Source: an uncultured Nitrospiraceae bacterium (GTDB taxonomy: Bacteria; Nitrospirota; Nitrospiria; Nitrospirales; Nitrospiraceae). Taken from it: a DNA stretch of 64,000 bases. Of this stretch, positions 12,603-62,479 are shown piece by piece (position 1 is the first letter of the stretch; each line of letters starts with the position of its first letter). The stretch lies in the NCBI GenBank assembly GCA_963846575.1, contig CAWJWJ010000002.1:512001-576000 (forward strand), given 5' to 3'. The notes beneath the pieces were generated by a model. It saw nothing but the letters and a program-made list of their open reading frames with translations. It ran no database searches and was not told the origin of the DNA. The translations under genes were made by a program, and so were the position numbers.

Positions 12603-13614
12603 ATGGATTCTACCTTCACGCTCTCCATTGATTGGTTGGCCTTTACGGTCCTGGCCAGCAATCCTCAAGAGACCATGAAGGTCCTCGGTGGAGAGTGGAG
12701 TCGGGCCAAAGGTGGCTTTCGAGGCTATCCCCTCTCATGGGTCAAGACAGATGGACTGCGAGGAGTGGGCAAACTGGGCACGAACGCGCCTCGTCGTCCG
12801 AATGAAATCCATGTCGATCTCTCTGGCGGTTTGGTTTCTGCGCTCACACTCGATCAGATTCGAGTGCTTCTGAAGTGGGTCCATGCCCAGCAAGGGCACG
12901 TGACTCGAATCGACTGTGCCCTCGATGATCGAGCTGCAACCGTCTCCGTCTCGACGGTTCGAGAGGCCGTCGCTGCTGGTCAGTGTGTGACCCGTGCAGC
13001 TCAGGTTCGACACATTGTCTCCAACCTGACGCATGGGAACGGAGCGACGACCGGCGAGACGATGTATTTCGGCAGTCCACAGAGCCAGACCCTCTTGCGC
13101 ATTTATGACAAACGGCTCGAACTTAAGAGTAAGGGCCAAGAGAACTGGCAGGACTACGGTACTCGGTGGGAACTAGAACTCAAGAAGGATCGGGCTGACC
13201 AATGTGCCCGCGCATTGGCCACCTTAGACGAAGCCGACTGGAAGGAGTTGGTGATCGGCTTACTCCGGTCCTATGTGGATTTCCGGCAGATCCCGAAGGA
13301 TGCCGAGGATGAAGAACGCTACCGGGCTCCCAGTGCTGGAGTGGTACGCCATTCTGACGGAGGGATTTCAGAAGGGGCGATTAGCCCAGGAGACGCAGGT
13401 GCAGACCCTGCAAGATGTGAAACGATGGGTGAGCGACACCCTGACGCCAATGCTGGCGGTCATCTGTGCCACCCCTGGAGGGGAAGAATGGCTACAGCAC
13501 GAAATAGTCAGGGGCATCTCCCGGTGGAAAGACCGGCACCGGAACTTGCTCAAACAACCACCCACTCGGTTTCACACGTCGTCTGCCGGCGGGAACGCGG
13601 GCAGGCCATGTTAG
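12603..13614 (+). pseudogene. Rep_trans family replication initiator / MOBT-like relaxase, with one frameshift near 13330
   Basis: IDWLAFT, TRIDCALDD, GETMYFGS, LRIYDK and RWELELK motifs; C-terminus (VLEWYAIL...KRWVSDTLTP) continues in another frame. Confidence 0.85.
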
Positions 13615-13656
13615 GGGGACTGGGGGTGTCGCGAGACGCCCCCGGTGTATGTGCAC

Positions 13657-13968
13657 ATGCTCACCGTCAAAGAGCTCTCGGCTTGGCTCAACATCAAGTC
13701 GTCCACACTCTACCTCTGGGTTTCACGGAACAAGATTCCGTGCTGTCGCATTCATGGGCTCATCCGATTCGAACCTGAGGCCATACAAGCCTGGCTGAAG
13801 GGCTTTGGGGCCAACCCCGTCAAGCCGTGCCCACTGCCGACCCGCCAGGATTCCAACGACGTAGACCACCTGATTGCCGCGGCCAAACGTGCCGTCTATA
13901 CTCCCCGCCACGGGGAAACCATCACACCGAGCCCACGCACGAAGGAGGAGCAGCATGGGGCTCGTTAA
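13657..13968 (+). CDS. Excisionase-like HTH protein (HTH_17)
   Basis: MLTVKELSAWLNIKSSTLYLWVSRNKIP..RI..LIRF; overlaps integrase start. Confidence 0.85.
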   Translation: MLTVKELSAWLNIKSSTLYLWVSRNKIPCCRIHGLIRFEPEAIQAWLKGFGANPVKPCPLPTRQDSNDVDHLIAAAKRAVYTPRHGETITPSPRTKEEQHGAR

Positions 13969-15040
13969 ACGGAACAATACATGGTGGATGTCATTTACGT
14001 ATCAGGGGCAGCAAGTCCGAAGGTCGACAGGGACGGCGGACAAGCGAATGGCTGAGGCGATTCTCGGCAAAGTGAAGGCTCAGGTTATTGAAGGGCGCTT
14101 CTTCGAGAAACCGAAGGAAAATTTAAAAACGTTCACCGAACTGATGGATCGGTATCTGAGGGAACATGCTAGCCGGCGAGCGAACTATCGACGGTATGTG
14201 GACATGGTGAAGAATTTGAAGACCTTCTTCGGGAACCCCAGTCTAGTGCAAGTCACGCCAAAGACCATTGTGGCATACAAGAACAAACGGTATGCCGATG
14301 GGGTGAAGCCTGCCACGATAAATCGGGAACTCGCGTTACTAAAAAAAGCCTTCAATTTGGCCTGCCGCGAGTGGGAATGGACAGAGGACAATCCCGTCTG
14401 CCGAGTTTCTATGGAGAAAGAGCAGAACGCGCGAGACCGTTGGTTGACTGAGGATGAGGAGGCGAGGCTGTTCGCAGTTGCTCTGCCGTGGGTCAAAGAA
14501 GTCGTGATCTTTGCCATACATACTGGTATGCGGAGAGGCGAAATTCTGGCACTCACGTGGGCTGGAGTGAATTTCACTCGTCGAACCGTGACTGTCTTTC
14601 AATCGAAAAACGGAGAGCGGCGCACAATTCCGGTGAACCAAACGGTCTTGGATTTGCTCGCGCAGAAACGTGCGCAGAGGAGTGGATCGACAAGGATTCT
14701 GGAACAGGATGTCGTCTTCGTCAGTCAATCTGCCACTCCATTGGATAGCAGCAACCTTCGTCGAAGGTTTATCAGCTCTCTCAAAACCGCACAGATCACG
14801 GACCTTCACTTCCATGATCTTCGCCACACTTTCGCAACGCGGCTGGTTCAGGCTGGAGTAGATCTTTATAAGGTTCAACGACTGCTGGGGCATAAGTCAC
14901 CGACGATGACTCAGCGGTATGCCCATCATTATCCTGAAAGTTTGCGGGATGGAGTAGAGGTGTTGGACCGAAAGGGGAGGATTAGCACAAATTTAGCACA
15001 GCGAGGAGAAGCGGCAACTTCTGTTTCTCTAAATTGTTGA
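13955..15040 (+). CDS. Tyrosine recombinase/integrase (intact)
   Basis: N-terminal arm-binding region; TGMRRGE, HDLRHT, LGH and RY catalytic motifs; GGAGG RBS. Confidence 0.95.
   Translation: MGLVKRNNTWWMSFTYQGQQVRRSTGTADKRMAEAILGKVKAQVIEGRFFEKPKENLKTFTELMDRYLREHASRRANYRRYVDMVKNLKTFFGNPSLVQVTPKTIVAYKNKRYADGVKPATINRELALLKKAFNLACREWEWTEDNPVCRVSMEKEQNARDRWLTEDEEARLFAVALPWVKEVVIFAIHTGMRRGEILALTWAGVNFTRRTVTVFQSKNGERRTIPVNQTVLDLLAQKRAQRSGSTRILEQDVVFVSQSATPLDSSNLRRRFISSLKTAQITDLHFHDLRHTFATRLVQAGVDLYKVQRLLGHKSPTMTQRYAHHYPESLRDGVEVLDRKGRISTNLAQRGEAATSVSLNC
14982..15000 (+). repeat. Putative arm-type site, element A right end (inside integrase 3' end)
   Basis: ttagcacaaatttagcaca, 45 bp before the core. 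Confidence 0.75.
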
Positions 15041-38330: not shown

Positions 38331-39536
38331 ATGGCGAAGGCGAAATTTGAGCGACGAAAGCCCCACGTGAACATCGGGACGATCGGGCACGTGGACCATG
38401 GAAAGACGACGCTGACGAGTGCCCTGACCAAGATCTGCTCGGAGCGGGGCATGGCGAAGTTCATCAGCTACGACGAAGTGGCGAAGGCGAGCGAGAGTCA
38501 GGGGCGGCGGGATGCCAGCAAGATCATGACCATCGCGATCAGCCATGTGGAATATGAGACCGACAACCGGCACTACGCGCACGTCGATTGCCCGGGCCAC
38601 GCCGACTATGTGAAGAACATGATCACGGGCGCCGCGCAGATGGACGGAGCGATTTTGGTGGTGAGTGCGGCGGATGGGCCGATGCCGCAAACGCGAGAGC
38701 ACATTTTGTTGGCGCGCCAAGTCGGCGTCCCCTACATTGTCGTGTTTCTCAACAAGGCGGACAAGGTCGACGACAAGGAATTGCTGGAGTTGGTCGAGTT
38801 GGAAGTGCGGGAGCTGCTGACCAAGTATGAATTTCCGGGCGACAAGATTCCCATCATTCAGGGCTCGGCCTTGAAGGCGATCGAGGGGGATCAGGGGCCG
38901 TTGGGTGTGCCGTCCATTCTGAAGTTGTTGGAGGCGGTGGACACCTATATTCCGACCCCGACGCGGGCGATTGACAAGCCGTTCTTGATGCCGATTGAAG
39001 ATGTGTTCACGATCAGCGGGCGCGGGACGGTGGTGACGGGGCGCTGTGAGAAGGGCATCGTGAAGGTGGGCGACGAGATCGAGATCGTGGGGTTGAAGCC
39101 GACGCAGACGACCATCGTGACCGGGGTGGAAATGTTCCGCAAGGTGCTCGATGAGGGGCAGGCGGGGGATAACATCGGGGTGTTGCTGCGCGGGACGAAG
39201 AAGGAAGATGTGGAGCGCGGGATGGTGTTGGCGAAGCCCAAGAGCATTACGCCGCACACGAAGTTCAAGGCGGAGATTTATGTGTTGACGAAGGAAGAGG
39301 GCGGGCGGCATACGCCGTTTTTTAACGGGTACCGGCCGCAGTTCTACTTCCGGACGACGGACGTGACGGGCATCGTGACGCTGACGCCGGGGGTGGAGAT
39401 GGTGATGCCCGGAGACAATGTGACGGTGACGGGCGAGTTGATCAGCCCCATCGCCATGGATCAGGGGCTCCGGTTTGCGGTGCGCGAGGGTGGTAAAACC
39501 GTCGGCTCGGGCGTCGTCACTGAAATTCTAGCGTAG
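38331..39536 (+). CDS. tuf: Elongation factor Tu (copy 1)
   Basis: [17 protein letters not shown]. Confidence 0.99.
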
Positions 39537-40338: not shown

Positions 40339-40881
40339 ATGATGAACAATAAGAACTGGTACGTCATCCACACCTATGCGGGCTTTGAGGGCCGCGTAAA
40401 GACCAGTCTCCTTGAGCGCGCAAATCAAATGGGGCTCACTGAGCGGCTGGGGCAGGTCTTGGTGCCGACGGAGGATGTGATTGAAATCAAGGATGGCAAG
40501 CGACGGACTTCTCGACGGAAGTTCTTCCCCGGTTATGTTTTGATCGAATTAGAGTCGCCGCTGGCAGACGAAACACTGCAGATGATCAAGGAGACCCCGA
40601 AGGTGACGGGGTTTGTCGGCGGCGGTGCCCAGCCAACGCCTCTTTCGTCTGAAGAAGTCGATTCTTTGCTGAAGCAGGTGGATGCCGGTGCGGCCGGTCC
40701 GCGCGAGCAGGTTCGCTTCATCAAGGGTGACAATGTCCGAATTGTGGACGGTCCGTTTCTGGGTTTCAATGGCGCCGTGGATGAGGTGGATGCGGATCAT
40801 AGCCGCGTCAAGGTCTTTGTGAGTATCTTCGGCCGGTCCACGCCGGTCGAGCTTGGGTTCTTGCAGGTTGAGCGTATTTGA
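40339..40881 (+). CDS. nusG: Transcription factor NusG
   Basis: WYVIHTYAG, FPGYVL, KOW motif. Confidence 0.98.
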   Translation: MMNNKNWYVIHTYAGFEGRVKTSLLERANQMGLTERLGQVLVPTEDVIEIKDGKRRTSRRKFFPGYVLIELESPLADETLQMIKETPKVTGFVGGGAQPTPLSSEEVDSLLKQVDAGAAGPREQVRFIKGDNVRIVDGPFLGFNGAVDEVDADHSRVKVFVSIFGRSTPVELGFLQVERI

Positions 40882-40955
40882 GGTCATTGGATTGGCGGAG
40901 TTGGATGAGAATCGCTCTCAGCCTGCCCTAGTCCGCAGTTCTCAGGGAGTAACTC

Positions 40956-41378
40956 ATGGCTAAGGAAGTTTCGGCACAGATAAAATTGCAGATCCCCGCT
41001 GGCAAGGCCAATCCTGCGCCCCCTGTCGGCCCGTCGCTGGGACAGCACGGCGTAAATATCATGGAATTCTGCAAGCAGTTCAATGCGAAAACGCAGAAGG
41101 ACGGGGACAGCATCATCCCGGTGATTATCACGGTCTATAAAGACCGCAGCTTTACCTTCATCATGAAGACGCCCCCGGCTTCTGATTTGCTCAAGAAGGC
41201 TGCCGGCATCATAAAGGGCTCTGGGGTGCCGCATAAGGACAAGGTGGGGAAGGTCAGCCAGGACCAAGTTCGTGAGATTGCGCAAAAGAAATTGTCCGAT
41301 CTGAACGCGGCGGACCTGGAGGGTGCCATCAAGATTATCCAAGGCACTGCGCGCAGTATGGGCATTGCCATCCAGTAA
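40956..41378 (+). CDS. rplK: 50S protein L11
   Basis: ANPAPPVGP. Confidence 0.99.
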
Positions 41379-41422
41379 GTCTGTGCAGAGTGAACCTCCG
41401 GCGGATGTGAAGGAGTAGTAGT

Positions 41423-42115
41423 ATGGGAAAGAAGATGGCCGCGGCTCAGGAAAAGCTCGAGCCCAGGTTTTATGGATTGAAAGAGGCGGTTGAGGCCGTC
41501 AAGCAGGCGGCGTTCGCCAAGTACGATGAATCAGTTGACCTGGCGATCCGCCTAGGGGTCGATCCGAAGCGCTCGGACCAGATGGTCCGTGGAACCACTG
41601 CCTTGCCGCACGGAACCGGAAAGAAGCTCCGCGTCCTGGTGTTCGCTAAGGGCGAGAAGGAGCAGGAGGCTCGACAGGCAGGTGCTGATTTCGTGGGGTC
41701 TGATGACTTGATGGAGAAGATCAAGGGCGGATGGATGGAATTCGATTGCGCTATTTCGACGCCTGACCTCATGGCGTCCGTCGGCAAGCTCGGAAAGGTG
41801 CTGGGGCCTCGCGGCCTGATGCCGAATCCGAAAACCGGTACCGTGACATTCGAGGTGGGCAAGGCCGTGAGCGAGATCCGCAAGGGACGTGTGGAGTTTA
41901 AGGTCGAAAAGGCGGGGATTGTGCAGGTGCCGGTGGGAAAGGTGTCGTTTGATGCCCAAAAGCTGTACGACAACGCTCATGCGGTGCTGGAGTCTGTTGT
42001 GAAGGCAAAGCCCTCCTCCTGTAAGGGGCGCTATCTCAAGAGTGTGACGATGTCGAGCACCATGGGGCCGGGGGTAAAGCTGGATCCTGTGGCCTTGTCG
42101 AAGTTGTGGAGTTGA
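41423..42115 (+). CDS. rplA: 50S protein L1
   Basis: [11 protein letters not shown]. Confidence 0.99.
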
Positions 42116-42146
42116 GAACAGTCAGGTTCTCAGTAAGGGGAAAGGC

Positions 42147-43082
42147 ATGAAGAAAGAAGAGAAGGCAACAGCGATCGGTGAATTGACGGAAAAATTCGGT
42201 CGCGCCCGCTTGGCTATTCTGACGGAATGCGCCGGAATGCCCGTCAATCAGATGACCGAGTTGCGCAGGCAGTTGCGCGGAGCCAAGGCAGAATACTGCG
42301 TGATCAAGAATACCCTGGCCGTGCGCGCGTCGGCCGGTACGATCCTCGCGGATGCCAAGCCCCATTTCAAGGGACCGACGGGCCTGGTGATCGGGTATGA
42401 CGATCCGGTGCTTCCGGCGAAAATTTTGCGGGACTTTATTCTGGCCGAGAAGCGAAGCGAGAAGATCAAAATCACCGTCGGAGTGCTTGAAGGTAAGCTT
42501 GTGCAGCCAGCGGAACTCGCGGCGATTGCGCAGTTGCCCAAGAGGGAAGTGCTGATTGCCATGCTGCTATCGGCCATGCAGGGTCCGATTCGCGGCGTGG
42601 TGTACGCGTTAAGCGGAGTGTTGAGCAAGTTCGTACGAGTCATTGCAGCCATTCAGGATAAAAAGAAAGGGGAGGGCGACATGTCAGCAGCAGCAGGAAC
42701 GAAATTGTCACAAGATGAAATGATCAAGGCAATTGAGGGTATGAGCGTGTTGGAATTGGCCGACCTGGTCAAGGGATTGGAGACACGTTTTGGGGTGACG
42801 GCAGCGGCCCCGATGGCCATGGCAGCACCGGCCGGCGGTGGAGCGGCGGCAGCTCCCGCAGAGGAAAAGACGTCCTTTGACGTGATTTTGGTCAGTGCTC
42901 CGGCGGACAAGAAGATTCAAGTCATCAAGGTCGTGCGCGAGCTCACCAGTCTCGGTCTCAAGGAAGCGAAGGACTTGGTCGAAGGTGCGCCGAAGCCCGT
43001 CAAGGCCGGTGTTACAAAGGAAGAGTCAGACGCCATGAAGAAGAAGCTCGAAGAAAGCGGTGCCAAGGTCGAAATCAAGTAA
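42147..43082 (+). CDS. rplJ: In-frame L10-L7/L12 fusion ORF (178 aa L10 + 133 aa L12)
   Basis: L10 (VIKNTL, FKGPTG) runs with no stop codon into L12. Confidence 0.93.
42681..43082 (+). CDS. rplL: 50S protein L7/L12, probable internal start within the fusion ORF
   Basis: AAGGGGAGGG SD-like sequence immediately before ATG 42681; [19 protein letters not shown]. Confidence 0.85.
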
Positions 43083-43166
43083 TTCTGCGCTGATCTGCGG
43101 TGTGCGGGGTTGTCCGGTGGGATGGCGCGATGCCGTCATCTCCTTATGAGCTTGGAGGGCTAACGA

Positions 43167-46100
43167 ATGTCGGAATCGACTCTTTCGGAGTTTGTCGAAC
43201 GCAAAGATTTTTCTCGGATTCGTACGAGCATCGACATTCCCGATCTCATTGAGATCCAGAAGCGGTCCTACGAGGAATTCCTCCAGATGGAGGTCGAACC
43301 GGATCGTCGCAAGGATCAAGGGTTGCAAGCCGCGTTGGCCAGCGTCTTTCCCATTACGGATTACAACAACACCGCGGCGCTCGAGTTCTCCAATTATTCT
43401 TTGGGGACCCCGAAATACGACGAGCGGGAATGTCTTGAGCAGGGGATGACCTATGCCGTTCCCTTGAAATTGCGGGTTCGGCTGATTGTGTTCGACAAGG
43501 AAGACAAGGGGCCGAAAAAGAAAGTCCTCGACGTCCGGGAGCAAGAGGTCTACGTCGGGGAGCTTCCCCTCATGACCGAGCGCGGCACGTTTCTGATTAA
43601 CGGCACCGAGCGAGTGGTGGTCAGTCAGTTGCACCGCTCGCCTGGCGCATCGTTTACCCATGATAAGGGGCGGACACACGCCAGCGGAAAGGTATTGTTC
43701 TCCGCACGGATCATTCCGTATCGTGGATCTTGGCTCGATTTCGAATTCGATGCTCGGGATATCCTATATGTTCGAATCGATCGACGCCGGAAGATGCCGG
43801 CCACCATCCTGCTGAAGGCTTTCGGCTATAGCACGGATGACTTGCTGCGCATGTATTATCCGGTGGAGGAGATACGTGTTTCCAAAGGGAAACTTTATCG
43901 AAAGCTCGATGCTGAAATCCATCATGGCTTGAAGTGTACGACGGAAGTGACGGAGAAAGGCGGGAAGGAACCTCTCGTCCGCGAAGGCGCCAAGCTGACG
44001 AAGGTTTTGATCGCCAAGCTCAAGGCGGCCGGAATCAAGGAGATTCCTGTGACCCCGGCCGAACTCGTCGGGCGTGCGGTCCTGACGGAGCTCGTAGATG
44101 CTGGCAAGAAGCAGTCGTTGGCCGAAAAGAATCAGCGTCTCACCGAAGAGATTCTGGAGAAGATACTGGACAGCGACATCGATGAATTCAAGGTCATTTA
44201 CCTGGATACGACGAATGCCACCCTCGTCATCCTCGACACCCTGGATATGGAGCATACCGTCTCGAAGGAAGAGGCGATGGTGGAGATTTATCGCCGTCTT
44301 CGGCCGGGCGAGACGCCCTCTGTGGAGACCGCGCGAGCTCTGTTCGACAATCTGTTTCTAAGTCCCAAGCGGTATGATTTGTCGCCGGTCGGTCGGTTGA
44401 AGCTTAATAAGAAGTTGGGCCTCGATTTTGCGCTCGAACAGCGAACCTTGACTGCTCAAGACATCGTGGAAGTCGTGCGCTATCTTGTGAATCTGAAAAT
44501 TGGTCGCGGTGAGATCGACGACATCGACCATTTGGGTAACCGCCGCGTACGGTCCGTCGGCGAATTGCTGGAGAATCAGTTCCGACTTGGTCTCGTTCGA
44601 ATGGAGCGGAGCATCAAGGAGCGTATGAATCTCCTGGACATGGAGACGGTGCTGCCCCATGACCTCATCAACGCTAAGCCGGTCGTGGCGGCGGTGAAGG
44701 AGTTTTTCAGCAGCAGTCAGCTGTCCCAGTTCATGGATCAAACCAATCCCCTGGCTGAAATCACGCACAAGAGGCGCCTCTCGGCCCTTGGGCCGGGTGG
44801 TTTAACGCGCGAGCGTGCCGGTTTCGAAGTGCGAGACGTGCATCCTTCCCATTACAGCCGTATCTGTCCGATCGAAACGCCGGAAGGCCCGAACATCGGC
44901 CTCATTACCTCACTGGCCACCTATGCGCGTATCAACGAATTCGGTTTCATCGAGGCGCCCTACCGGAAGGTGATCAAAGGCCGGGTCAGCGATGAGTTGG
45001 AATACCTCTCGGCGATCGAGGGTGACAAGTATGTGATTGCGCAAGCCAATTCAAAGGTCGATACGGCTGGACGACTCGTTTCCGAGACAGTATCGGCCCG
45101 ATCAGGAGGGGATTTCATTACGGCCACGCCGGATAAAGTGGAATACATGGATGTCTCCCCGAAGCAGGTCGTCAGCGTGGCCACGGCACTGGTACCGTTC
45201 CTTGAGCACGACGATGCCAACCGCGCCTTGATGGGTTCCAACATGCAGCGACAAGCGGTCCCTCTCCTCAAGGCGGAATCGCCGTTGGTGGGAACGGGTA
45301 TGGAAGCCGTCGTCGCGCGCGATTCTGGTTATGTTGTGCAGGCCAAGCGTGAAGGTGTAGTCGAAAGTGTCGATGCCACGAGAATCGTGGTGCGTGCGGA
45401 TTCCAAGGAAGGGCGCAAACGAAACGATGCCGGTCTCGATGTCTATGAGATGATCAAGTTCCAGCGGTCCAACCAGAATACTTGCATTACTCAAACCCCA
45501 GTAGTCCGGGTTGGAGAGCCTGTCAAGAAGGGGCAAGTACTCGCGGATGGCCCGGCCATTGATCACGGAGAACTCGCGCTCGGCAAGAACGTGCTTGTCG
45601 CGTTCATGCCCTGGGGCGGATATAACTTCGAAGACGCCATTCTTCTCAGCGAGAAGCTGGTGCGGGAAGACGCGTTCACCTCCATTCACATCGAAGAGTT
45701 CGAGGTGGAGGCGCGCGATACGAAGTTAGGGAAGGAAGATATCACGCGCGATATTCCTAATGTCGGCGAGGAAGCGCTTCGAGATCTGGACGAGAGCGGA
45801 ATTATCCGGATTGGTGCGGAAGTCAAGCCTGGCGACATCCTGGTTGGTAAGGTGACGCCGAAGGGCGAAACCCAACTGACGCCGGAAGAGAAATTGTTGC
45901 GCGCAATTTTTGGTGAAAAGGCCGGGGACGTCAAGGATACCTCTCTCACGGTTCCCCCTGGCGTGGAAGGCATTGTCGTCGACGTGAAGATCTTCTCTCG
46001 CAAAGGTTTGGACAAGGACGAACGGTCCAAGAGCATCGAGAGCGAAGATCACATGAAGCTGCAGCGCGACCATCAGGAAGAGCTGCGGATTATCGAAGAC

Positions 46101-47126
46101 GAGAAGACGAAAAAAGTCCGCAAGCTGTTACTCGGGAAAGTGGTCGGTCGGGATCTGATGGATCCTGAGACTGGCGACGTCATCCTGAAAAAGAAGGGCA
46201 AGTTAACTGCCGAAATACTCAAGCGCTTGCCGGACGACATGGTTCGACACATCATTCTCAGTGATCCTGATGAGCAGAAGGAGCTGGAAGATGTGGAGCG
46301 CCGGGCCAAGGAGCAGATCGAAATTCTTCAGACCTTGTACGATGAGAAGGTTGGTCGGCTGAGGAGAGGTGACGAACTTCCTCCCGGGGTAATCAAGCTC
46401 GTTAAGGTCTACATCGCGATGAAGCGGAAGATTCAGGTCGGCGATAAGATGGCCGGACGCCACGGGAACAAAGGCGTGGTGTCGCGAGTGCTGCCGGAAG
46501 AGGATATGCCGTACTTGCCGGACGGGACGCCGGTGGAAATCGTTTTGAATCCGTTGGGCGTGCCGTCTCGTATGAACGTGGGCCAGATTTTGGAGACTCA
46601 CTTGGGCTGGGCGGCGCGCGCATTGGGCATCAAGGTGGCAAGCCCTGTGTTCGACGGTGCGTCGGAGAAGGAAATCAAGGAACTGCTGAAAAAGGCAAAG
46701 ATTTCTCCTAGTGGGCAAACGATGTTGATGGATGGCCGCACAGGCGAATCGTTCAGCAGTCCCGTGACGGTTGGATATATGTATGTGCTGAAGTTGCATC
46801 ATTTGGTCGATGATAAGATTCACGCCCGGTCCATTGGTCCCTACTCCCTCGTGACCCAGCAGCCGCTGGGAGGGAAAGCGCAATTCGGCGGTCAGCGTTT
46901 GGGAGAGATGGAGGTCTGGGCACTGCAGGCGTATGGAGCCGCCTCTATCCTGCAGGAATTCCTGACCGTGAAATCCGACGACGTGCCGGGACGTTCGCGT
47001 ATGTATGAAGCGATTGTAAAGGGGGAGCCGTTCCTGGAACCTGGATTGCCGGAATCGTTCAACGTGTTAGTCAAAGAGCTGCAGAGTCTGGGGCTCGATG
47101 TCGAGCTGGTTAAATCGAAGGACTGA
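43167..47126 (+). CDS. rpoB: RNA polymerase beta subunit
   Basis: [12 protein letters not shown] and other conserved motifs. Confidence 0.99.
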
Positions 47127-54647: not shown

Positions 54648-55853
54648 ATGGCGAAGGCGAAATTTGAGCGACGAAAGCCCCACGTGAACATCGGGACGAT
54701 CGGGCACGTGGACCATGGAAAGACGACGCTGACGAGTGCCCTGACCAAGATCTGCTCGGAGCGGGGCATGGCGAAGTTCATCAGCTACGACGAAGTGGCG
54801 AAGGCGAGCGAGAGTCAGGGGCGGCGGGATGCCAGCAAGATCATGACCATCGCGATCAGCCATGTGGAATATGAGACCGACAACCGGCACTACGCGCACG
54901 TCGATTGCCCGGGCCACGCCGACTATGTGAAGAACATGATCACGGGCGCCGCGCAGATGGACGGAGCGATTTTGGTGGTGAGTGCGGCGGATGGGCCGAT
55001 GCCGCAAACGCGAGAGCACATTTTGTTGGCGCGCCAAGTCGGCGTCCCCTACATTGTCGTGTTTCTCAACAAGGCGGACAAGGTCGACGACAAGGAATTG
55101 CTGGAGTTGGTCGAGTTGGAAGTGCGGGAGCTGCTGACCAAGTATGAATTTCCGGGCGACAAGATTCCCATCATTCAGGGCTCGGCCTTGAAGGCGATCG
55201 AGGGGGATCAGGGGCCGTTGGGTGTGCCGTCCATTCTGAAGTTGTTGGAGGCGGTGGACACCTATATTCCGACCCCGACGCGGGCGATTGACAAGCCGTT
55301 CTTGATGCCGATTGAAGATGTGTTCACGATCAGCGGGCGCGGGACGGTGGTGACGGGGCGCTGTGAGAAGGGCATCGTGAAGGTGGGCGACGAGATCGAG
55401 ATCGTGGGGTTGAAGCCGACGCAGACGACCATCGTGACCGGGGTGGAAATGTTCCGCAAGGTGCTCGATGAGGGGCAGGCGGGGGATAACATCGGGGTGT
55501 TGCTGCGCGGGACGAAGAAGGAAGATGTGGAGCGCGGGATGGTGTTGGCGAAGCCCAAGAGCATTACGCCGCACACGAAGTTCAAGGCGGAGATTTATGT
55601 GTTGACGAAGGAAGAGGGCGGGCGGCATACGCCGTTTTTTAACGGGTACCGGCCGCAGTTCTACTTCCGGACGACGGACGTGACGGGCATCGTGACGCTG
55701 ACGCCGGGGGTGGAGATGGTGATGCCCGGAGACAATGTGACGGTGACGGGCGAGTTGATCAGCCCCATCGCCATGGATCAGGGGCTCCGGTTTGCGGTGC
55801 GCGAGGGTGGTAAAACCGTCGGCTCGGGCGTCGTCACTGAAATTCTAGCGTAG
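54648..55853 (+). CDS. tuf: Elongation factor Tu (copy 2)
   Basis: Same protein as 38331-39536. Confidence 0.99.
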
Positions 55854-61825: not shown

Positions 61826-62479
61826 ATGGCAAAAGTAGAGAAGGGTAAGGGCGGCAAAGGGGCTAGTCCTCGGTCGTCAGCAAAAAAAGAAGCCGCCGCG
61901 CCTGAGGTGTCCCAGGATTCCGGGACTGAGCATCAGTTCGCACCGCGACTTCGGGAAACGTATCGCGATCAAGTTGTGCCGGCTCTCATGAAAGAGTTCG
62001 GATACGGCAACCTGATGCAGGTGCCGAGGTTGGAGCGCATCGTCCTTAATGTGGGCATGGGCGAGGCCATTCAGAATGTCAAATTGCTGGAGAGTGCCTC
62101 TACGGAATTAGGCATTATCACCGGACAAAAGCCGATTACCACCAGGGCCAAGAAAGCGATCGCAGGTTTCAAGTTACGCCAAGGTATGCCGATTGGGGCG
62201 AAGGTGACCTTGCGGAGTCGACGGATGTGGGAGTTTCTCGATCGTCTGATCTCGCTCGCGCTTCCCCGGATTCGTGATTTTCGTGGTGTGTCACCAAAAG
62301 CCTTCGATGGTCGCGGCAATTATACGCTGGGATTGAAAGAGCAATTGATCTTCCCTGAAATCGAATATGACACTGTGGCTTCCATTCACGGAATGGATAT
62401 CACTATCGTCACCACCGCCAGGACGAATGATGAAGGTAAGGCCCTTCTCAAACATTTGGGCATGCCTTTCCGGGCCTAA
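61826..62479 (+). CDS. rplE: 50S protein L5 with N-terminal extension
   Basis: LPRIRDFRG; about 38 extra N-terminal residues. Confidence 0.97.

Follow-up and report, generated by a model that had tools for sequence, protein, structure and literature searches.

An rplJ-rplL fusion shared across sampled Nitrospirales, with signs of selection on a predicted internal start for free bL12

Among the parts of the ribosome, only the stalk is present in more than one copy. In its canonical bacterial form, uL10(bL12)4-6 (E. coli and B. subtilis; T. maritima structures 1ZAV/1ZAX), it is encoded by separate rplJ and rplL genes in the order rplK-rplA-rplJ-rplL-rpoB, with a stop codon and a spacer between the two stalk genes. 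How many bL12 dimers a stalk carries is dictated by how long the C-terminal part of uL10 is, and why several dimers are needed is described as still a mystery (PMC4592705, in the part available). Two other described systems carry a second start inside a single gene. Salmonella SpaO is made in a long and a short form (1:2), the latter being a C-terminal part that arises from an internal start, dimerizes, and binds the full-length form in a fixed ratio (PMC13515050, in part). In cyanobacteria, one gene likewise gives the full-length scaffold CcmM58 and its internally started C-terminal part, CcmM35 (10.1101/648071, in part).

The locus described here, in a window that comprises the whole 64,000-nucleotide stretch of DNA analyzed, is not a canonical rplJ-rplL operon. 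It has the same domains and the same gene position but neither the stop nor the spacer, and the claim of an earlier note on this DNA that uL10 and bL12 share one uninterrupted frame is borne out by the 311-residue translation of 42147-43082. Compared with the canonical operon, the fused locus makes uL10 only with bL12 attached, and any free bL12 must start within a translated frame. Since there is no stop codon at the junction, coupling by termination and restart cannot supply it. We conclude that this is a real, clade-wide stalk variant that appears to be unstudied and for which dual translation is strongly indicated by the sequences.

The fused frame and its parts

The features of the locus, with the evidence for each in parentheses, are as follows.

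42147..43082, + strand: fused rplJ-rplL frame, 311 aa, 32.9 kDa (ORF list, translation, Pfam, NCBIfam)
42147..42680, + strand: uL10 part, aa 1-178 (Pfam, NCBIfam, alignments)
42537..42674, + strand: uL10 helix 8, aa 131-176, of T. maritima length, with three predicted bL12-dimer sites (1ZAV alignment, model)
42666..42676, + strand: internal Shine-Dalgarno (SD) sequence AAAGGGGAGGG, core GGAGG at 42671-42675, within the K-G-E-G codons (anti-SD pairing)
42681..42683, + strand: internal ATG, predicted start of free bL12 (97/97 fused genes)
42681..43082, + strand: bL12 part, or predicted free bL12, 133 aa, 13.7 kDa (Pfam, NCBIfam)
42669..42707, + strand: tether from helix 8 to the first bL12 helix, aa 175-187, predicted disordered (pLDDT)
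41423..42115, + strand: rplA (uL1), upstream in the rplK-rplA-rplJL-rpoBC cluster (translation, gene order)
42116..42146, + strand: rplA-rplJ spacer, 31 bases, with the ribosome-binding site of the fused frame (sequence, pairing)
43167..47126, + strand: rpoB, the downstream gene (ORF list, translation)

Both halves of the 311-aa protein are recognized by family models. Pfam places L10 at residues 1-97, L12_N (PF16320) at 189-235, and L12 (PF00542) at 244-311, with PF00466 (Ribosomal_L10) scoring 91.2 bits against a cut-off of 22.8. The NCBIfam equivalogs for L10 (4-173) and L7/L12 (185-311) are both above their cut-offs, the uL10 equivalog NF000955 reaching 161.3 against 85, and TIGR00855 is above its cut-off with the 133-aa bL12 part by itself. 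The bL12 part has an N-terminal extension, a dimerization domain, an Ala/Gly hinge, and a C-terminal domain. Close homologs of the fused protein bear Nitrospira names in their source records. The 42147-43082 frame is the sole match in the genome both to the fused protein and to the bL12 C-terminal family; there is thus no second rplL, and any free bL12 must derive from the fused frame.

Across the junction the codons are cag gat aaa aag aaa ggg gag ggc gac ATG. As the earlier note had proposed, the linker codons themselves spell an SD sequence, GGAGG at 42671-42675, which ends 5 bases 5' of the ATG at 42681. The same note had likened the C-terminal helix of L10 to the Thermotoga type, and this likeness holds: helix 8 (query 130-174) gives a gap-free alignment with T. 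maritima uL10 (1ZAV) that runs to residue 179 of the latter, and the alignments to B. subtilis and Listeria uL10 stop at query residue 158. Given the rule that links uL10 length to dimer number, a helix 8 of T. maritima length predicts three bL12-dimer sites. Counted from Pro131, the uL10 part matches the unfused uL10 of sister lineages in length (47-48 aa), which suggests that its last codons were replaced by the ribosome-binding site.

A single-chain structure model shows helices at 133-145 and 147-176, pLDDT below 50 at 175-187, and then the bL12 helices; with a pTM of 0.42 it is of low confidence and uninformative on docking. A fold search with this model returned the expected uL10 and bL12 folds and nothing else. 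In all 97 fused genes compared (see below), the distance from Pro147 to Val201 measures 53-55 residues. In most genes of family f3 an earlier junction is compensated by a longer bL12 N-terminus, an offset that is essentially one event. From the junction Met to Val201 there are 21-23 residues in the fused genes versus 14-17 in 150 of 165 split loci. The corresponding distance is 19-24 residues in 13 of 19 split relatives from the same class, and the idea that the long bL12 N-terminus evolved as a tether was rejected on this account; the extension is older than the fusion.

The region upstream is compact. In E. coli and B. subtilis an autoregulatory leader lies 5' of rplJ (PMC4538822, in part). 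No Rfam match was found in 18 loci, and the 31-base spacer here is too short for a separate rplJL leader. The spacer measures 12-46 bases in most fused genes and about 280 in three sister genomes. We considered whether loss of the leader accompanied the fusion and rejected this, as many split relatives in the class have short spacers too.

Two observations concern other parts of the window. An ORF in 12603-15040 has a weak MobT/replication-initiator-like match (E 1e-8, far under the cut-off) and is followed by a tyrosine recombinase; together, to judge by their sequences, they are probably a small integrated element. In rplE (uL5; 61826-62479), 217 aa by its predicted start, an approximately 35-residue Lys/Gly/Ala-rich N-terminal stretch precedes the usual start of the fold.

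Spread of the fusion

The junction recurs in material independent of this assembly. The earlier note had proposed mapping raw reads over it; a 151-base record from a soil DNA run (X1), spanning 42595-42745, is identical to the window, with 0 differences, 0 gaps, and no stop; a contig from an RNA library (X19) crosses the junction of a relative without gaps. The sequencing runs matched in this search were all contigs, which carry no information on RNA starts or levels, and none contained half of the query's words.

A search of 41 relatives found the full-length stop-free frame in 33 genomes. The remaining 8 comprise 6 without a match, 1 broken at a contig end, and 1 frameshifted within uL10, and the last two both retain the fused junction. 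The frameshifted locus (L030, G023:C12), from a 79% complete genome, departs from frame near residue 125-136 of uL10 and has an intact junction; the frameshift is probably an assembly error. When five no-match genomes were rechecked (four from the 41-genome search and one from family f2), rplA proved to be missing too, so the whole locus is unassembled there. In the window, two tuf copies at 38331-39536 and 54648-55853, identical across 1206 bases, bracket the rplK-rpoBC-fusA block, and such identical copies probably explain why the whole block is missing from the assemblies of several "complete" relatives.

Searches by family matched 19 of 21 genomes in f3, 5 of 5 in f4, and 78 of 81 in f2, with zero stops inside the matches. 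In a search of the phylum (301 genomes), all matches listed from the order were stop-free and, among the matches listed, every one from outside the order that covered both domains had a stop. The comparison of the rplJ-rplL junction across Nitrospirota that the earlier note had suggested therefore found no stop at any Nitrospirales junction examined. All eight outgroup loci that were read directly are split, as are 19 of 20 further loci from other orders of the class. In one of the outgroup loci (L058) rplJ and rplL are in frame and separated by a single TAA plus 10 spacer codons, so the step to fusion is a short one. On these sequences, the sampled members of the order Nitrospirales have the fusion in common, the order being assigned from the names of homologs.

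A fused rplJ-rplL from another order of the class (L282; G433:C122:783-1706) joins its two halves by another linker, which likewise has a purine-rich site and an ATG. It comes from a single genome, the only one of its family, and may be an error.

For comparison among genes we used 97 distinct fused genes (41 from f1, 36 from f2, 15 from f3, and 5 from f4); L027, L030, L082, L084, and L087-L091 were left out for contig ends, frameshifts, or the motif filter, as were duplicates. In their last eight uL10 codons, 4-8 single-base changes per gene could restore a stop, and none was observed. Two f3 genes (L075 and L086) have the junction K-G-E-G-E-M, as in f1 and f2, and not P-K-E-x-x-M, which suggests that the usual f3 form of the junction is derived.

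Fusions also occur at much greater distance. A search of 1.84 billion representative sequences gave, among its best 150 matches, about 21 full-length uL10-bL12 proteins of 32-47% identity besides the Nitrospirales one; P0171, P0188, P0233, P0267, P0172, P0177, and P0179 were excluded because they look frameshifted or incomplete, and incompleteness also removed P0157, P0161, and P0214. Nineteen of the distant fusions were looked up: 7 have 2-16 members per 90% cluster, and the 12 others are singletons, which may be errors. Armatimonadota, Chloroflexota/Dehalococcoidia, Bipolaricaulia, and Fervidibacterota are among the source names. All 21 have a long helix 8, although the query favors such matches. 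By eye, a Met directly precedes the bL12 helices in 17 of the 21, mostly after GG or EG, and the Val or Leu found at that place in the other 4 could represent GTG or TTG starts. Among the proteins seen, P0125, P0136, P0155, P0162, and similar ones are 320-1050 aa long and carry many tandem repeats like the bL12 C-terminal domain; P0125 has 7 stretches that match TIGR00855.

In a uL10 tree of 110 rows (quick search), a branch separates the Nitrospirales from the rest; the other 21 fusions are scattered among split genes and need 8 changes. An AU test on 66 rows did not reject a single clade of all 32 fused rows (p 0.218), so the case for independent origins rests on source names and unlike linkers, not on the tree. 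On this taxonomic basis, separate origins of the distant fusions are likely. Two DNA scans returned 160 diverse loci. Together with the eight outgroup loci, 167 were scored, of which 166 are split and 1, a Nitrospirota record, is fused; one further locus is incomplete. No Fervidibacteria or Chloroflexota fusion locus was among the 160 returned.

The internal start

Several lines of evidence point to selection on the internal start. Because the 97 fused genes are related, counts over them do not represent independent events and overstate their number. All 97 have the junction ATG, followed in every case by S, A, P, or T. These are small residues that permit removal of Met. Most other internal Met residues vary among the genes, Met199 being near-invariant (96/97), and the bL12 part keeps a length of 130-134 aa.

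The codons ahead of the ATG are constrained beyond their amino acids. The Gly four codons 5' of it is encoded by GGA or GGG in 83 of 83 cases, against 1124 of 2244 for other Gly codons in the same genes. Family f3 differs: 13 of its 15 genes encode P-K-E-D/E/G-x-M at this place, and the motif AAGGAGG appears in the other register, its Lys-Glu being written AAG GAG in 13 of 13. At the level of sequence, this change of codon register between families is the strongest single sign of selection on an internal SD.

Anti-SD pairing, computed against the genome's own 16S tail, averages -10.2 kcal/mol at the junctions, compared with -8.1 at 95 rplJ starts and -4.5 at 574 other internal ATGs. For the locus in the window, the junction ATG pairs at -11.6 kcal/mol and has a local fold of -2.0 kcal/mol, versus -7.3 and -3.2 at this genome's rplJ start. 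None of 3000 random internal in-frame ATGs of this genome equaled both junction values (30 did so for pairing and 33 for folding). Across 30 genes the junction is the least folded 40-base window of the frame, 2.5 kcal/mol weaker than in codon shuffles. The start of an ordinary rplL is likewise reported to be weakly folded (PMC13001810, in part). Codons ending in A cluster 3' of the ATG in f1-f3: over the three codons that follow it, third-position A rises from about 0.11 to 0.81 in f1 and 0.49 in f3. Family f4, with only 10 codons to compare, shows no such enrichment, and its internal site is weaker (-7.1 kcal/mol). Codon adaptation gives no clear sign of excess bL12. Unfused rplL is reported to be better codon-adapted than rplJ (PMC13001810, in part); the bL12 half here exceeds the uL10 half by +0.039 (95% interval -0.035 to +0.114, not significant), and in relatives the difference is mixed, being positive in 25 of 41 f1 genes and 9 of 36 in f2.

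These patterns are signs of selection at the RNA level on an internal SD and its ATG. E. coli with one bL12 dimer grows poorly (PMC3299993, in part), and helix 8 here keeps three sites; on both grounds, free bL12 would very probably be made from 42681 by internal initiation.

The proposed stalk and its relation to known systems

We propose that an ancestor of the Nitrospirales lost the rplJ stop and spacer, which would have left the ribosome-binding site of rplL inside the last uL10 codons, and that, as the earlier note had inferred, one gene and its mRNA now give two proteins. Initiation at 42147 would yield the uL10-bL12 chain of 311 aa and 32.9 kDa. Fresh initiation at 42681 would yield free bL12 of 133 aa, probably in several-fold excess because the internal site has the stronger pairing with the 16S tail and the looser fold. 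The uL10 domain would bind 23S rRNA as usual, with helix 8 presenting three sites for bL12 dimers. Held by a flexible tether of about 12 residues, the attached bL12 N-terminal domain would most likely pair with one free bL12 at the outermost site, and four further free copies would occupy the other two, giving uL10-bL12(bL12)5 with one factor-recruiting arm unable to leave. Both products, their ratio, and the docking place of the tethered domain are what we infer from the locus, and we regard this particular placement and composition as somewhat favored. A model of the complex (aa 118-222 with three free bL12 N-terminal domains) lends weak support, scoring 0.36 against 0.15 for the best control, and, the pair being a textbook one, may do no more than echo 1ZAV. 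Its runs share at least 82% of contacts, with partner pLDDT of at least 63. Of the solved complexes, 51 of 78 attained the mark used, as did 2 of 108 mismatches, and the range at or below 0.60 holds just 5 of the 78 solved complexes but all 4 mismatches that passed. The likeliest benefits would be that one arm is never lost and that the two nested starts fix the ratio, although the fusion may be a tolerated accident.

The last of these, in its full form, holds that free bL12 fills all three sites and that the fused copy is an undocked extra arm, the loss of the stop having been neutral or nearly so. We consider it rather unlikely. The long bL12 N-terminus that forms the tether predates the fusion, the tether is predicted to be disordered, and fusion recurs in distant lineages with a tether span of 48-69 residues, much as an easily tolerated accident might. 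Yet the four families show zero reversions despite 4-8 stop-restoring single changes, and within the order the span is fixed at 53-55. Moreover, an unpaired bL12 dimerization domain exposes a hydrophobic surface, as this undocked arm would.

The 311-aa chain could also be a polyprotein, cut at the tether into an ordinary uL10 and one bL12, with the remaining copies initiated internally and the stalk canonical. The bL27 of Firmicutes is a ribosomal protein matured by cleavage. Ubiquitin fusions are a further case (PMC5027506, in part), and the tether is flexible and exposed in the model. What makes cleavage quite unlikely is that the residues before the Met vary by family (K-G-E-G-D, P-K-E-D-S, K-G-M-G-E) while the RNA motif persists. 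This variation of the linker peptide, the retention of the RNA motif, and the lack of a shared frameshift site together suggest that the long uL10-bL12 chain probably stays whole.

Very little probability attaches to a minimal stalk built from the fusion only, with no free bL12 and one tethered arm per ribosome. In its favor, gene callers see one frame, the 133-aa product has no exact-sequence entry in the protein collection, and nitrifiers grow slowly. The signs of selection on the internal start and the full T. maritima length of helix 8 speak against it, bL12 acts as dimers (PMC4592705, in part), and the poor growth of E. coli with one dimer makes a fusion-only stalk unlikely.

Hardly more can be said for the idea that programmed frameshifting, or cutting of the RNA near the junction, provides free uL10 or a separate rplL message and leaves the fusion a minor product. 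An A_AAG run lies just 5' of the junction in 58 of 97 genes, and cleavage between rplJ and rplL is reported in Streptomyces (PMC13001810, in part). However, a slippery heptamer is present in just 7 of 97 genes, A_AAG in 0 of 15 from f3, and the out-of-frame stops lie at no common position; with no conserved site, a programmed frameshift was rejected. As to a separate message, no sigma-70-like promoter was found in 40800-43300, although this is weak evidence. That a sequencing or assembly error removed a stop between rplJ and rplL has practically no chance of being true, being refuted by the same junction in the independent soil DNA record and by the 97 distinct fused genes in four families, single-contig genomes among them.

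The fusion is not new to annotation. The earlier note had supposed that it might already appear in records of relatives, and the N. defluvii protein CBK41052.1 (UniRef D8PCU3), with the same fusion and 93% identity, is indeed named [quoted passage not shown]; the UniRef name is "Multifunctional fusion protein." This is a label only, silent on the internal start, the clade-wide spread, and function. Other records call the fused protein plain L10 or plain L7/L12, and genomes annotated with only one of the two can skew marker-gene sets and proteome quantification. We found no study of an L10-L12 fusion in the literature searched, which lay mostly outside subscription papers; the available part of PMC7203096 has no mention of L10 or L12, and 12 of the 15 supplementary files of PMC11410670 hold no entry for rplJ, rplL, or L12. 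Among 50 matches to solved structures, no chain has both uL10 and bL12 domains.

Because a whole order of nitrifiers apparently ties one arm to the stalk base, nature here offers a way to test how arms exchange, what their number means, and how the stalk is assembled. In addition, translation of one core ribosomal protein would begin inside the gene of another, with no possibility of restart after termination.

By sequence, the fused rplJ-rplL would work like the nested starts of SpaO and CcmM, with which it shares a conserved in-frame start and a ribosome-binding site inside the frame. SpaO and CcmM serve in secretion and in carboxysomes, whereas here two once-separate core ribosomal genes have merged; the ratio predicted here is 1:5, and the internal start, unlike theirs, is the old rplL start. 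In the part available, a 2026 review of nested starts (PMC13515050) never uses the terms rplL, L12, or ribosomal protein.

In archaea and eukaryotes, P0 has a factor-binding C-terminal tail like those of its P1/P2 partners, so that the stalk base itself bears one arm. P0 and P1/P2 together make up the stalk in the layout described in PMC3089481 (in part). A stalk base with an arm of its own resembles the tethered arm predicted here, but P1/P2 are not homologs of bL12 and have separate genes. Archaeal L10 models match the fused protein over residues 5-94 only, and the PRK04019 models give 20-25 bits against cut-offs of 331-547. The likeness to P0 is thus one of convergent design, not of membership. 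In its widest form, to which we give an even chance, our reading is of a second bacterial stalk architecture, in which a covalent uL10-bL12 with a non-exchangeable arm is joined by five free bL12 from a nested start. It would be fixed across the Nitrospirales, reached separately in Fervidibacteria, other Armatimonadota, Chloroflexota, Bipolaricaulia, and one more Nitrospiria family, and combined with a long helix 8 in every example seen. If this is true, a core ribosomal stoichiometry is set by the ratio of two nested starts, in a bacterial stalk that has converged on the P0 design.
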